IMG/VR virus record: IMGVR_UViG_3300048919_000076
Strand: one strand, 5' to 3'
DNA: 64,000 bases
Source: an uncultured virus (IMG/VR IMGVR_UViG_3300048919_000076)
Lineage: Duplodnaviria > Heunggongvirae > Uroviricota > Caudoviricetes
Shown piece by piece: positions 9,379-47,731 of the stretch; the stretch's first letter is position 1; each line of letters opens with the position of its first letter. A program made the translations under genes and the position numbers. The notes beneath the pieces were generated by a model. It was not told where the DNA came from and did not search any database. It saw only the letters and a list, made by a program, of their open reading frames with translations.

Positions 9379-9858
9379 TTGAGTAATGCACGGGTAACAC
9401 GGTTTAATGTAATTTGCGGCAACCCCGTAAACATGGGTACTGATCTAGAATATTGGCGTCAAGTGAAAGAACAGGCTGCTCGTATTCTTGAAGAAGCAAT
9501 TGAGATGAATACAGCAGCACAGGAAGAGGACTATCAAGGTGTAATTGATGGTTGGGGAGATGTAAAATACACCAACGAATACATGGATGATATCCTGAAA
9601 GGTGCTGGTGTAGATACTAAGAAAGTATTTGATACGATTGCAAGTAACAATGATCAGAAGTTTACAACTAGCTACACATATGCTTGTGATAGTAAAGAAG
9701 CTTTGGAACAACTTGACGTTGATTGTTATTTGGATAGCACAACTTACGAAGGGACGCTTTACTATGTTATTCGTCGAGTCCATGATAATAAGATTCTTAA
9801 GCTGAAGCATCATGAGTCGCCGGATTTGAGTAGCTTTATTCCAAAGGAGTTGCTATGA
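9379..9858 (+). CDS. MazG-like NTP pyrophosphohydrolase
   Basis: ILEEAIE...DGWGD...NNDQK...KILK...PDL. Confidence 0.7.
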   Translation: MSNARVTRFNVICGNPVNMGTDLEYWRQVKEQAARILEEAIEMNTAAQEEDYQGVIDGWGDVKYTNEYMDDILKGAGVDTKKVFDTIASNNDQKFTTSYTYACDSKEALEQLDVDCYLDSTTYEGTLYYVIRRVHDNKILKLKHHESPDLSSFIPKELL

Positions 9859-43697: not shown

Positions 43698-43973
43698 TTA
43701 TACAAGTTGTTGTACGGAGACGTGAGTGTTACCAATCTTTGCAGCCTTAGCCCAAACGATATCTGTTTCGTTTTCGATATACAGATACTTTAAAGGTTCA
43801 ATCACTTGACCATTTTCAGAGGAGGCTGCTGGGAGAGATGCTGCAATAATAATGCGTACAGGTTCACTTCCCTTGTTCTGAATAGAGAGGGGAGTGCCAG
43901 TAATTAGTGAGGTTGCGAGGTTTAAATTCTGATAGGCAGTGCCAGTCAGTAGAACGTCAGGCAGGGTTGCCAT
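43698..43973 (-). CDS. Hypothetical structural protein
   Basis: AGGGAG RBS before MATLPD; the longer ORF call runs into the structured RNA. Confidence 0.7.
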   Translation of the reverse strand: MATLPDVLLTGTAYQNLNLATSLITGTPLSIQNKGSEPVRIIIAASLPAASSENGQVIEPLKYLYIENETDIVWAKAAKIGNTHVSVQQLV

Positions 43974-43986
43974 CGTTATTCTCCCT

Positions 43987-44260
43987 TCAGAGATGGCTCT
44001 TTGAGCCTTATTGTTATTGTTACAAAGGGGAATATACACTTCAACTGTATGCACAGTTGTATATTGAATTTGTGTCATCAGCACCCACACTACCATGGCC
44101 TGACAAGCTCTCTGAATGCAAAGTCATTCAGCTTCTCCACTTTGATAGCTTACCTATCAGCATTTACATCAGTGATCCGCCAGAACCACGGGTTTCCGAA
44201 CTAGGCAGCTCAGAAATTCTTTTCAGTAACAACAATTCAGCACAATACCAAGCCATCTGA
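43987..44260 (-). ncRNA. Candidate structured non-coding RNA (~274 nt)
   Basis: Nested long-range helices plus three local hairpins filling an intergenic gap. Confidence 0.65.
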
Positions 44261-44328
44261 TACTGTTCAGCTTTTATGTTACTCAAACATTACATTTACA
44301 CATGAATGTTTAGTATATGTTACTTTTA

Positions 44329-44742
44329 CTACTCGTCTTCGTCAGGTTCAACAAACACCAATGACAAACGTGGCTTCATTTCAGATTTGATCTGTTCCGG
44401 AGTTTGCTCTTCACTTTCTTCGTCATCATCCGAACGCTTACCTTCCATACGGATCTTAGTCAGACTAGCTTCTTCACTTGCTGCAGCACGGTCGAGCGCT
44501 ATGATGCTGGAAACGACCCACTTCGAAGAATCTAACTGCTGAGATTCTACTTTCTCGCCTTCTACACTCTTCTTGATATTCTCAAGTGCAGTTGGTTCGA
44601 TTTCACGAAGTTTTTCGGCCGTCGCACGAAGCTTTGATTTCTGGATGCGAATTTTACTGTTCGATTTCGTGTTCCTATTCGAACGTGGTCCATCAAACCT
44701 AGTATCAGGTGATGGGTTCGGATTTGTAATTTTCTTAGCCAT
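44329..44742 (-). CDS. Possible terminase small subunit
   Basis: Basic N-terminus (PDTRFDG), helical core, acidic tail; size fits, but it is not adjacent to terL. Confidence 0.4.
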   Translation of the reverse strand: MAKKITNPNPSPDTRFDGPRSNRNTKSNSKIRIQKSKLRATAEKLREIEPTALENIKKSVEGEKVESQQLDSSKWVVSSIIALDRAAASEEASLTKIRMEGKRSDDDEESEEQTPEQIKSEMKPRLSLVFVEPDEDE

Positions 44743-44771: not shown

Positions 44772-47300
44772 TTATGAAACATAAAGGTCCCCCAAAGTGC
44801 TTGTAAAAAAGTTCCAAGTAGCATTAGGGTTTGTTGATCCAATAGGTGTAGCCTTCAATTGTGAAGAGGCGTCAATAGACCATGTGAACGATGGGAATGT
44901 TCCACCAGCACCAGTTAGAAGCCCAACAGCACTGACAGTTACCAATTGAGGAGCAAGAGACGTGGCTCCCTTAGCTACCTGAAGGATGTAGTGTGCTGTC
45001 TCAGAAGCATTTGCATCGACTTGTTTAACTGTAATGAACAATACACCGGAAAAGTTGGTTGCTGTACCATCTTGTGAAACACAAGTACCAACCACGTTTC
45101 CGGTGGTTGTCAGGTTCTTGGAGATTGTCTGTGATGCAGTGTTGATCCTTTTAGATGAATAGTCCCTACGTGCTGTGCTGTTCTCGTCACGATTACCCAC
45201 ACCAGTGATAAAATCATAGGAAGTTCCCAGTGGGACGTTAACGGTGTTATACCTTGCTCTTGCTCCTTTGGAACCCTCAGAGTCAGTGGAGATAGATATC
45301 CCAGATGCCCCAGCAACGCCTGAGTGTAGATAACAGCCCTCAACAATAGCCTTACCTTTGTTTACCCTAATACCAGACCCATTGAATTGGTATGCTGTTA
45401 CGTCTTTTACAACAACATCAGGAAGAAGCTCAAGACCTCCAGTGGGGGAGATGTCACCTGTGACATCTGCCACGTTGTTCAGGAATGCACTAGTAATCAT
45501 GTAGGCATTAGCCTTACTACCTACGGCAGAGCAGTTCTCAATGCTTGCATTTTGAGCGCCGTATACCGAGAACGAATGTGATCCGGAGGTGGGGTTCCTC
45601 TCTATAATATCAACACCGCGCATGACAACATGCTCGTGGTAGCCGCCAGAGGCCGCCGCGATAATAGCCACACCTGTTGCGGAGCCGGCTGCTGGTACAT
45701 CACCTACACTGAGGGCAGACGGAAGAACTTCAATATTACTGGCGATACCACACTTGTACAAACGATGAGTACCTGTGAAAGCACCAATAGTTTTGTAAGT
45801 ACCTGTGATAGCATCTTCCTTGGTTTCAGCTACTTTAATAGTGTTAGCGTCAACTACAATAGCGAAATAGTAATTGGCCCGTCCAAAACCAGTAATCGCT
45901 GTGTTGTTCTGGCGGGAGTAAATTAAAGGGTAACCTGTAGTCAATCCGTGCGCTGTCAGGGTGAGAGCATTTGCGGAAGATGTGGTAAAATCGTATTTAC
46001 CTAAAGTGTATGGCTCTATACCAATAACTTCACGCATAGTGTCGGTAGAGAACACCTGCATACTACCATGATCTACGTTCCCATATTGAAGGCCGAAGTT
46101 ACCGCCTTTCTCACAGATAAGTTTTCCATAGCAGTTAGTGGACGGTCTGTTATATGGATAAAAAGCACTAACGCCTACGGCTCCACCCAAAGCAGTGCCA
46201 TCTGAAATTACTTTCAAATCTAGGAATAGACCATCTGTATTATCTAGCAATATACCATGTTCGGCATGAGTACCAATACGAGCTACAGTGAATCCCTTCA
46301 AGGATATGTTCTTAAGTCTTGGTCCAGTGAATGGGCTTGCAAAGAACAGCTTACCAGAAGATGGAAACTTACAATAGATTACAGGTGAATAAGTGTCATC
46401 CCCTAATATATCCATTGAAGACCACGCATGTATTGTATCAGTGATCATGTACTTCTTGTTTCTTTTAAGCTTGATTGGTAAGCCCGAAGCTTCAGCTGCA
46501 AGGAAGGCTGGTGTACAATCCGTACCAATCTGGGTATCTGGGTCATAGTCACCAACTGCACCAAACAATTCAATAGGCACACGAGAGTCACCAAGTATGG
46601 AGTAAATAGTGGCTGGTGTGCCATCAAGATCAATACCGATCAAGGCTGCGCCTTTTAAATGATCGGAGTTGTTGGATAGATCTGCGATATCAGCTTTAGT
46701 AGAAAGAAGCCCTTCAGTATACACAGCACTAGCTTCAGCGGCATTAGCCGAATCCAAAGAATCCTGTGCAGATGTGGAAGCTTCAGTAGCCTTAGTGGTA
46801 GATACACCCGCAAAAGTACTAGCAGATGATGCACTATTAGCCGAGTTAGTTGCAGAGGTTTGACTTGCTACCGCTGACGTTTGAGAGGCTATTGCACTAT
46901 TGGCACTGGCGGTAGCACTGTTAGTAGAATTCGTAGCTGATATAGCAGCAGCATTCTTACTAGCCAATGCAGCAGCAGCGTTAGCTGCAACTTGAGCTAC
47001 TAAAGGATCACTCCCAGCAGTTTGCCCAACCATCAACAGAGCGTTAATAGTTGTCTCTGTTGTATCATCTGTAATTTCAATATTACCAATGCTTGTAAAT
47101 GCATGGTAATCATTTACGAATACACTTACTTTATACCAACCATTAGGAACATCAATCTCGTATTCCCCGTCAATGTCTGTCTTAAAATCTTTAGTGACAA
47201 ACATCAAGACATCGGGAGATGTATTATTAGCTGTAATCCGTACAAGTGAGTTTGAATATGGAACACCTGTAGGGGTTAGAAGAATACCTGAAAGAATCAT
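44772..47300 (-). CDS. Tail spike/fibre with putative beta-helix depolymerase domain
   Basis: Stf-like N-terminus (LSGIL..P.G.P), Ala/Ser stalk, FGAVGD...GTD.T.AF, repeating beta-strand pattern. Confidence 0.8.
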   Translation of the reverse strand: MILSGILLTPTGVPYSNSLVRITANNTSPDVLMFVTKDFKTDIDGEYEIDVPNGWYKVSVFVNDYHAFTSIGNIEITDDTTETTINALLMVGQTAGSDPLVAQVAANAAAALASKNAAAISATNSTNSATASANSAIASQTSAVASQTSATNSANSASSASTFAGVSTTKATEASTSAQDSLDSANAAEASAVYTEGLLSTKADIADLSNNSDHLKGAALIGIDLDGTPATIYSILGDSRVPIELFGAVGDYDPDTQIGTDCTPAFLAAEASGLPIKLKRNKKYMITDTIHAWSSMDILGDDTYSPVIYCKFPSSGKLFFASPFTGPRLKNISLKGFTVARIGTHAEHGILLDNTDGLFLDLKVISDGTALGGAVGVSAFYPYNRPSTNCYGKLICEKGGNFGLQYGNVDHGSMQVFSTDTMREVIGIEPYTLGKYDFTTSSANALTLTAHGLTTGYPLIYSRQNNTAITGFGRANYYFAIVVDANTIKVAETKEDAITGTYKTIGAFTGTHRLYKCGIASNIEVLPSALSVGDVPAAGSATGVAIIAAASGGYHEHVVMRGVDIIERNPTSGSHSFSVYGAQNASIENCSAVGSKANAYMITSAFLNNVADVTGDISPTGGLELLPDVVVKDVTAYQFNGSGIRVNKGKAIVEGCYLHSGVAGASGISISTDSEGSKGARARYNTVNVPLGTSYDFITGVGNRDENSTARRDYSSKRINTASQTISKNLTTTGNVVGTCVSQDGTATNFSGVLFITVKQVDANASETAHYILQVAKGATSLAPQLVTVSAVGLLTGAGGTFPSFTWSIDASSQLKATPIGSTNPNATWNFFTSTLGDLYVS

Positions 47301-47567: not shown

Positions 47568-47651
47568 TGGTGCGGAACGTAAGACTCGAACTTACACGTC
47601 TTTCGACAGCAGTTTCTAAGACTGCCATGGCTACCATTACATCAGTTCCGC
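47568..47651 (-). tRNA. tRNA-Leu(TAG)
   Basis: GCGGAAC/GTTCCGC acceptor stem, encoded CCA, anticodon arm GCAGT-CTTAGAA-ACTGC, long variable arm, TTCGA. Confidence 0.95.
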
Positions 47652-47655
47652 AAAT

Positions 47656-47731
47656 TGGTCTAAGCGGCAGGGATCGAACCTGCGAGTACTCGGTTCCAAA
47701 CCGAGACGATTACCACTTTCGCTACGCTTAG
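47656..47731 (-). tRNA. tRNA-Pro(TGG)
   Basis: CTAAGCG/CGCTTAG acceptor stem, encoded CCA, anticodon arm CTCGG-TTTGGAA-CCGAG, GTTCGA. Confidence 0.95.

Follow-up and report, generated by a model that had tools for sequence, protein, structure and literature searches.

The packaging RNA of phage phi29 is a phage-encoded structured RNA whose size is similar to that of the RNA core described below. Phage T4 encodes RNAC and RNAD, small non-coding RNAs from the phage tRNA gene region that are described as having an unsolved role (PMC3014915). GOLLD and ROOL are encoded by phages and prophages, often near tRNA islands, and tRNAs sometimes lie inside the GOLLD linker; they are described as combining a conserved with a variable part, and their role is given as unsolved (bioRxiv 10.1101/2024.12.08.627333). 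A survey of IMG/VR by Fremin et al. 2023 lists 8,495 covarying candidates, some of them near or overlapping tRNAs (PMC10690425). Here we analyse a stretch of 64,000 nucleotides (nt) from an uncultured virus of the Caudoviricetes (IMG/VR record IMGVR_UViG_3300048919_000076), referred to below as the window, and within it a long non-coding gap for which a structured RNA had been predicted from the sequence alone.

On comparative evidence, the gap appears to encode a structured non-coding RNA whose family is uncatalogued and belongs to one clade of uncultured soil and rhizosphere phages. The structural part of this proposal, a conserved, strand-specific, multi-helix RNA present in single copy in the tRNA region, is solidly supported by the alignments of relatives. 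The RNA sits in or beside the phage tRNA array, usually just past the gene for a 137-amino acid (aa) protein.

The large gap in a tightly packed region that the original prediction noticed is real and measures 355 nt (43974-44328, minus strand, as are all gap features below). It lies between the 137-aa open reading frame (ORF; 44329-44742, with its stop at 44329), 3′ of whose stop codon the RNA is found at short distance in most relatives, and a 91-aa gene whose ATG is at 43973 and is preceded by the ribosome binding site (RBS) AAGGGAGA. Neither flanking gene is truncated, the upstream ORF ending in a stop codon of its own and the downstream gene beginning with its own start codon. The prediction treated positions 43987-44260 as a single nested molecule of 274 nt, but the gap consists of three distinct parts, namely a variable 5′ spacer (44222-44328), a conserved RNA core of about 149 nt (44073-44221), delimited with a covariance model and by covariation, and, in front of the next gene, a conserved leader for its translation (43974-44072), recognised by folding and from the leaders of relatives.

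The conserved core and its covariation

Reading the minus strand from 5′ to 3′, the core runs through the segment AAGAAU (44216-44221), hairpins H1, H2 and H3, the junction GUGGAGAAG, hairpin H4, the short junction AGAG and hairpin H5. H1 (44193-44216) pairs UUUCUGAGC with GUUCGGAAA around the loop UGCCUA (44202-44207); all five of its modelled pairs show compensatory changes among relatives, 95.8% of cells are paired, and GCCUA in the loop is nearly invariant. H2 (44172-44189) is formed by GUGGUU and GAUCAC around the loop CUGGCG (44178-44183), with compensatory changes at 6/6 pairs, at most four pair types per position and 99.2% pairing; the loop is replaced by AACCAAC in three relatives. 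After a junction containing GUAAAUG comes H3 (UGAUAG/CUAUCA with loop GUAAG, 44143-44159), which has five pairs with compensatory changes, is 96.2% paired and is the site of insertions of 66-143 nt in L135, L136, L154, L156, L158, L161 and L162 (L numbers denote loci and G numbers genomes). The conserved GUGGAGAAG (44132-44140) then precedes H4 (CUGAAUG/CAUUCAG, 44112-44131), where all seven pairs carry compensatory changes and 99.3% of cells are paired. H5 (44076-44105), which lies beyond AGAG, has an outer stem of six base pairs (UGUCAG/CUGAUG), a bulged G, an inner stem of three base pairs (GCC/GGU) and the loop AUGGUAGUGUG; compensatory changes are found at 9/9 pairs, pairing is 97.8%, and GG, A and GUG of the loop are nearly invariant. 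The original prediction contained H3 and H4 exactly, and both covary strongly; H1, H2 and H5 had been overlooked.

Every pair of the comparative structure is standard in the window core. The conserved loops of the RNA are UGCCUA, CUGGCG, GGUAAG/GGAAAGA and RGGNAGNGUG. A sixth hairpin, P0, is present in many relatives and not in the window; it has a UUCG, GAAA or GCAA loop and is followed by GGUAUC.

RNAalifold applied to plain MAFFT alignments recovered H2 alone, as stems of unequal length were misaligned, and we therefore began from a covariance model of two sequences and a hand-drawn structure (R1), which was used to search loci, and proceeded by iteration. A second model, R2, was rebuilt from 28 sequences and scores 111.5 bits on the window (E = 1.5e-28), its hit spanning 44073-44237. 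A second R1 match in the window, at 9428-9575 (E = 0.026), falls within a 159-aa ORF, was not reproduced by R2 and was set aside as noise. Alignment A10, which comprises 44 hits (43 distinct sequences), was fitted to the structure by the covariance model, as was alignment A6. In A10, 96.2% of 1,457 pair cells are standard, against 57.3% after shuffling, and changes on both sides are seen in all 38 pairs. The covariation score is 0.839 compared with 0.190 for shuffled data, a value that 0 of 500 shuffles reach, and it drops to 0.08-0.12 once the partners are displaced by 1-3 columns. In the initial alignment, made with the two-sequence model, 95.3% of cells were paired and changes occurred at 37/38 pairs. 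When all columns were compared with all others, the top 30 by mutual information were exclusively pairs of the model helices. Read side by side, the relatives vary in their stems and are constant in their loops; insertions and deletions are confined to loops, and conservation lies in the loops and not in any reading frame. Covariation among homologues had been named in the original prediction as a check on the structure, and for the core these figures show it.

G-U pairs are frequent, the closing pair of H2 being U-G in 37/41 sequences. As G-U pairs would become A-C mismatches on the opposite strand, we infer that the structure belongs to the minus-strand transcript.

A pseudoknot between UGCCU in the H1 loop and AGGYA in the H5 loop is possible, near-invariance of these positions keeping covariation from deciding. 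CC:GG is unchanged in 41/41 sequences, U stands opposite A (36) or G (6), and the remaining G has U (24) or C (8) as its partner, with pairing failing in 8 sequences. The predicted pairing CUGCC/GGUAG overlaps this pseudoknot, which is compatible with the data. Two other contacts were rejected. Kissing between the H1 and H2 loops (GCC/GGC) shows no co-variation in the relatives whose H2 loop is AACCAAC, and a helix closing the core, formed by AAGAAU and the 3′ flank, comes down to just GAAU/AUUC in a subset of relatives, the 5′ segment changing elsewhere to CUAACU or CCAAAC without a matching change. What stands of the predicted helix GAAUUU/AAAUUC is the same GAAU/AUUC in that subset; the remainder is not kept. 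No extra tertiary pairs with mutual information above 0.6 were found outside the helices in the scan of all columns.

The outer helices of the predicted fold did not survive comparison. The terminal helix UCAGAUGGCU/AGCCAUCU(CU)GA is not conserved, and its AGCC belongs to a covarying hairpin of the leader, GGCUC-AAA-GAGCC; UAUUGU/ACAAUA and UUGUUAC/GUAACAA are not conserved either, and their arms join the variable spacer to the independent leader. In L142, which has the leader without the spacer, the 3′ arms of the outer helices are kept and their 5′ partners are gone, and in L132 and L153 a similar 5′ spacer is kept and the 3′ partners are gone.

Relatives, tRNA setting and neighbouring elements

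Nucleotide searches among cultured phages gave no similarity in either near or distant mode, and the 137-aa protein has no tblastn match among them. A search of IMG/VR with the 91-aa protein gave five loci and a DNA pattern gave further loci, and an alignment search with the 137-aa protein gave 38 loci, mostly on contigs of 78-93 kb with the rest on shorter fragments. R2 matches 30 of the 38 loci for which the 137-aa protein was the sole query, and in a 31st, L127, the RNA lies 1.6 kb further along the same contig. In the reverse test, the protein gene was present in the 1.5-kb upstream flank of 14 of 18 new RNA loci found by the DNA pattern alone. A strict pattern scan of metagenome contigs returned 71 loci, of which 15 were true and few were new. 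It is the upstream 137-aa gene that the conserved non-coding block accompanies; with the gene downstream it has no such association. Linkage to the downstream 91-aa gene was considered and rejected, as homologues of that gene in cultured Otagovirus-type phages have no upstream gap and the RNA also precedes other genes; what lies 3′ of the core is, depending on the relative, the 91-aa gene, a different small gene, an HNH endonuclease gene, or a promoter and another module.

The RNA is present once per genome in 5/5 genomes of CheckV completeness 92-100%. It is carried by uncultured phages of about 81-93 kb from soil and root metagenomes, and DNA of the window itself is present in soil, rhizosphere and root metagenomes. 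In its large terminase (TerL), the RNA-bearing clade shares about 51% identity with PAK_P5-like Pseudomonas phages. Among 185,579 species genomes scanned for the 137-aa protein, the one match, partial and weak, was in a groundwater metagenome-assembled genome, and the scan gave no prophage and no host assignment.

tRNAs are found in the flanks of 21 of 47 loci, every one of them on the strand of the RNA, and 10/47 loci have a tRNA that is directly adjacent to the RNA, nested within it or no more than about 60 nt away. A tRNA-Thr ends at the first bases of the RNA in L211, L213, L217 and L300, where it stands between the 137-aa gene and the RNA. A tRNA begins 11 nt past the RNA in L183 and 58 nt past it in L145 and L159. 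The model hits of L144, L138 and L146 contain a tRNA-Met, which takes the place of the 3′ half. Downstream of H2 in L138, L143 and L146 we also noted that ARAGORN reports, in L138 and L146, a tRNA-Met whose arm is unusually long and which Rfam does not report at E <= 1. Other genes stand between the 137-aa gene and the RNA in L147 and on the contig of L127 and L223.

The RNA also takes up larger units, and these, like the tRNAs nested in some relatives, enter at fixed positions. Big extra domains can lie between the stop codon and P0, giving stretches of 500-740 nt that are free of same-strand ORFs of at least 50 aa. In this position L145, L154 and L159 have an optional domain of about 70 nt, with a closing stem CCUUG/CCAUUG ... 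CAAGG/CAAUGG and the conserved stretches GCAAUUUCUG and GGGUGAGA, and further domains beside it bring the non-coding stretches there to 500-700 nt. Among L160, L132, L153 and L139, each of the four possible combinations of a 5′ half of the RNA (P0-H3) with a 3′ half (H4-H5) is represented, which points to recombination within the RNA gene where the conserved GUGGAGA junction lies. In L205 (the contig of L246), a 5′ unit P0-H1-H2-H3 is followed by a divergent second unit H3-H4-H5, an internal duplication or an insertion. An HNH-type homing-endonuclease gene with its own conserved and apparently structured upstream region of about 130 nt beginning AGGCCGCUGCAA follows the RNA as an insertion in L161 (at about 2100-2250) and in L166 (3′ flank); in L155, whose genome is G011, and in L157 it stands directly after AAGAAUU past the 137-aa stop, and the RNA is missing. 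Upstream of the 137-aa start, by about 130-250 nt and after the last tRNA, L020 and L030 have another conserved non-coding block with complementary ends, ACAGGGUC ... GUCCUGU, possibly a structured element or a promoter region. By eye, a promoter-like site TTGACA-17-TAnnnT follows the RNA directly in L128, L140 and L153. The U-rich motif YUAUUUUAUA often follows H5 in relatives and does not occur in the RNA of the window; as a general phage promoter it was rejected, since the window has 18 matches where chance alone would give 15.45.

The two parts of the gap that flank the core vary independently of it. The spacer carries the 5′ arms UCAGAUGGCU, UAUUGU and UUGUUAC, and an optional hairpin module at about 44276-44323 that is also present in L152, L156 and L158. 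Other relatives have different modules in this position, and the spacer is absent from L142, L128, L129, L161, L140 and L160, where the core stands at the 137-aa stop or within a few bases of it.

The leader contains, from 5′ to 3′, a hairpin at 44031-44066, at which place relatives seem to have a hairpin of other sequence; a C/U-rich anti-Shine-Dalgarno stretch, UAUUCCCCUUU (44024-44034); an A/C-rich stretch; the small covarying hairpin GGCUC-AAA-GAGCC (43995-44007); and the Shine-Dalgarno sequence AAGGGAGA (43980-43987). Its minimum free energy (MFE) structure has -23.7 kcal/mol (z = -2.36) and pairs UAUUCCCCUUU to the RBS across the A/C-rich loop and the small hairpin. The same two segments are paired, with changed sequences, in the MFE structures of 12 of 15 distinct folded leaders, pairings in relatives being CCCUU:AAGGG, UUUCCCC:GGGGGAA and UUCCCUU:AAGGGGAA; the pairing is not seen in L139, L152 and L153. 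The leader is also found in L130, L142, L150, L162, L231, L136, L181 and L158, both of its sides changing together. It is likely to be a translational operator of the first gene past the RNA that would mask the RBS in a long-range stem. The leader occurs as an independent module, and no helix joining it to the core is conserved among relatives. The predicted hairpin AAUAUAC-AACUGU (44031-44065) corresponds to something that relatives seem to have at this place, but with other sequence and inside the leader rather than the core, and the claim that the RNA ends flush with the RBS of the next gene holds for the separate leader and not for the RNA core.

The surroundings of the gap are tail-fibre and tRNA genes and not a terminase module. 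A tRNA-Leu and a tRNA-Pro (47568-47731, by ARAGORN and Rfam) lie 3.3 kb upstream on the strand of the RNA, and an 842-aa tail-fibre gene (44772-47300, minus strand; Pfam phage_tail_N, by Pfam and PHROG matches) lies between them and the 137-aa ORF. The first gene past the gap is the 91-aa ORF (43698-43973, minus strand), matched to phrog_4770, a family without assigned function. A 736-aa tail-fibre gene also lies downstream of the gap, and TerL is 5 kb downstream on the same strand. The gap is near the start of a block of minus-strand genes that extends from about 47.7 kb down to about 14.3 kb. Comparison of the gap with the window by blastn found no repeat, and the template of a diversity-generating retroelement was ruled out on that ground. 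Elsewhere in the window, at 260-533 on the plus strand, there is a full-length match to the group I intron model RF00028 (68.4 bits, E = 3e-15), located between an open-ended ORF stopping at 326 and an ORF starting at 558, where it probably interrupts a gene.

The 137-aa protein has no Pfam or PHROG family, an hmmscan of 31 members was negative, and a sequence search of solved structures gave no relative. Its 170 homologues, from phage contigs of roughly 85-94 kb, all lack a name or a Pfam domain. An AlphaFold2 model (mean predicted local distance difference test score 68.9) has a disordered basic N-terminus, helices at 35-60 and 67-101, and an acidic, poorly modelled C-terminal part with one short helix at 115-121. 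Foldseek returned 67 weak rows for this model, all with E > 1 and generic helical hairpins, among which the small terminases of G20c and 44RR rank 17, 20 and 21 (E about 5-6), the 44RR chains with a root mean square deviation of about 3 Å over about 60 columns. A lead from the ESM Atlas to DUF5681 (score 0.92, 47% of cluster members) was not borne out by hmmscan, and the Atlas otherwise gives unnamed viral clusters.

What the RNA may do

We favour a reading in which the RNA is co-transcribed with the tRNAs and the 137-aa gene, is cut free by the nucleases that process tRNAs and works in trans by means of its invariant loops, and we give this a probability of roughly 0.55. Such release, which would yield a separate stable RNA, is suggested by those relatives in which a tRNA ends at the first bases of the RNA or starts 11 nt past its end. 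The conserved loops would then bind a partner, whether protein or RNA. One candidate is the 137-aa protein, in which a basic tail is combined with a helical hairpin.

Several observations weigh against this reading or against parts of it. The nearest tRNAs of the window itself are 3.3 kb from the RNA. Five records have the 137-aa gene and no adjacent RNA, among them two complete genomes, G008 and G011, with no detectable RNA, and a third, G007, which gives an RNA hit of just 25.8 bits; because complete genomes with the gene and without the RNA exist, the RNA is dispensable and the protein independent of it. All examples come from one phage lineage, and the linkage to the gene and to tRNAs may be inherited gene order. 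The contigs of two metatranscriptomes and of one doubtful RNA run extend over the 137-aa gene and the 5′ spacer of relatives and leave the core uncovered, which provides no evidence of expression and can also be counted neither for nor against. The paired percentages are inflated in A6 and A10 by their fitting to the model, although fitting alone could not yield the four or five pair types seen at many positions. Folding energy is likewise of little help. The 274-nt stretch reaches -83.7 kcal/mol (z = -2.92, equalled by 0/200 shuffles) and so passes the comparison with shuffles by which the original prediction proposed to judge it, but the core alone would fail (z = -1.14, matched or bettered by 20/200 shuffles), and its comparative structure has -34.0 kcal/mol against an MFE of -44.3 kcal/mol, the MFE structure being without H2, H4 and H5. 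The case for the RNA is made by the comparative evidence and not by energy.

A possible, though unlikely, alternative is that the RNA is a cis-acting 3′ element of the transcript of the tRNAs and the 137-aa gene, which would process, stabilise or terminate it, setting the 3′ end of the message or shielding it from the next unit, perhaps with autoregulation through binding of the 137-aa protein. The six loci in which the core stands at or near the stop codon would suit such an element, as would the U-rich motif that often lies past H5 and the promoter-like site that follows the RNA in three relatives. However, six covarying helices, invariant loops and insertable domains exceed the needs of a terminator or stabiliser, and in L211, L213, L217 and L300 a tRNA, and in L147 and L127/L223 other genes, stand between gene and RNA. 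Being rich in A and U and having a loop of 10 nt, H5 is unlike an intrinsic terminator, a terminator scan of the window region on the strand of the RNA gave no terminator-like site, and the U-rich motif is missing from the RNA region of the window and not enriched in the window.

A rather speculative extension of action in trans, which we consider quite unlikely, is that these RNAs form a new modular class of tRNA-island RNA existing, in the manner of GOLLD and ROOL, as a free particle, by RNA-only assembly or in complex with the 137-aa protein, with loops that would engage tRNAs or host translation or a tRNA-cleaving defence. Pairing of UGGC in the H2 loop with the GCCA at the 3′ end of tRNAs is one speculative form that such contact could take. 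If the free-particle proposal were true, small soil phages would carry a compact and tractable counterpart of the giant ornate RNAs.

The position of the RNA near the start of the minus-strand block, and the RBS-sequestering leader directly 3′ of the core, could also be read as signs of a 5′ cis-regulator of the downstream late genes, whether riboswitch, translational switch or processive antitermination RNA. The downstream genes differ among relatives, which makes the core a poor fit for the translational switch of the next gene that the original prediction had suggested, and promoter-like sites or tRNAs can directly follow the RNA where a riboswitch or leader would have a constant class of gene. 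As the leader is moreover an independent module with no conserved helix to the core, regulation of this kind is improbable.

A packaging RNA, or a pac-type signal acting at the DNA level, with the 137-aa protein as the small terminase (TerS), is very improbable. It would draw on the model of that protein, in which disordered ends surround a helical hairpin, on the G20c and 44RR small terminases among its weak structural matches, and on TerL lying 5 kb downstream on the same strand. The original prediction had taken this neighbour for a possible TerS, which it could still be, but the claim found no backing in Pfam or PHROGs, neither of which gives a terminase family for it, and all of the structural rows have E > 1 and are generic helical hairpins. 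The RNA itself matches no Rfam family, packaging RNA included, at E <= 10, its G-U pairing points to one transcribed strand and not to duplex DNA, and complete genomes without the RNA exist. The protein sponge that the original prediction also suggested is a guess.

That there is no functional RNA here, only a degenerate coding remnant or chance structure, is barely credible: mechanical ORFs of 132 aa (minus strand, from 44096) and 117 aa (plus strand) overlap the region and the folding energy of the core is ordinary, but compensatory changes occur at 38/38 pairs, insertions and deletions keep to the loops, conservation follows the loops and not a reading frame, and the ORF extension is missing in L142, whose 91-aa gene is 93% identical.

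Comparison with known RNA families

Rfam 15 (4227 models) gave nothing at gathering scores in 43974-44328, its matches in the window being otherwise the group I intron and the two tRNAs. At E <= 10, four chance-level rows were obtained in 43800-44500 (11-17 bits against gathering scores of 40-50), and at E <= 1 the 20 relatives searched gave only tRNAs, tRNA look-alikes and one chance row for a long non-coding RNA. Neither ARAGORN nor Rfam found a tRNA or transfer-messenger RNA in the gap, and the group I intron model, which finds the intron at 260-533, has no match in the gap even at E <= 10. The assertions that the region holds a structured RNA outside Rfam, and that it is not a tRNA, a transfer-messenger RNA or a group I/II element, were thus upheld by these scans together with the covariation. 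The motif is not described in the full-text literature that we searched. Six of the contig identifiers from this analysis are absent from the readable supplementary tables of Fremin et al. (PMC10690425), in whose alignments the family may be entered under a serial number.

Searches with R2 of the complete genomes of T4 (NC_000866, at E <= 1), PAK_P5, phiPsa374, Bobbio and XD2 gave nothing, and as a positive control R2 found the RNA in 5/5 genomes known to contain it. In genomic setting, the phage tRNA region, the RNA is nearest to T4 RNAC and RNAD, to which it has no detectable homology; T4 belongs to another phage lineage. The phi29 packaging RNA is unlike it beyond size: no Rfam family matches here at E <= 10, nothing ties the window RNA to proheads, and the complementarity between its H1 and H2 loops (GCC/GGC) does not covary.

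A likeness in setting also holds for GOLLD and ROOL. The family described here is also encoded by phages beside tRNA islands, with abutting and nested tRNAs and inserted domains. It is not homologous to them as judged by Rfam in the window and the 20 relatives, and whereas GOLLD and ROOL are about 580 to over 800 nt long and form multimers, the core of the window RNA is about 150 nt, has another secondary structure and is not known to form multimers.

Phage tRNA regions have recurrently been found to hold structured RNAs of unsolved role, RNAC and RNAD for decades and GOLLD and ROOL since 2009-2017. To these the present family would add an example of about 150 nt with very clear covariation, defined optional domains, a conserved gene neighbour and natural genomes with and without the RNA, features that recommend it for work on its structure and for finding out what RNAs of this kind do. 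For the window itself, the long gap in a packed late region would be functional sequence, and a separate gain is that the next gene has a conserved leader predicted to mask its RBS. We suggest that the family is new but its kind is not, and that, like T4 RNAC and RNAD and the GOLLD and ROOL RNAs, it belongs with the structured orphan RNAs that phage tRNA islands encode.

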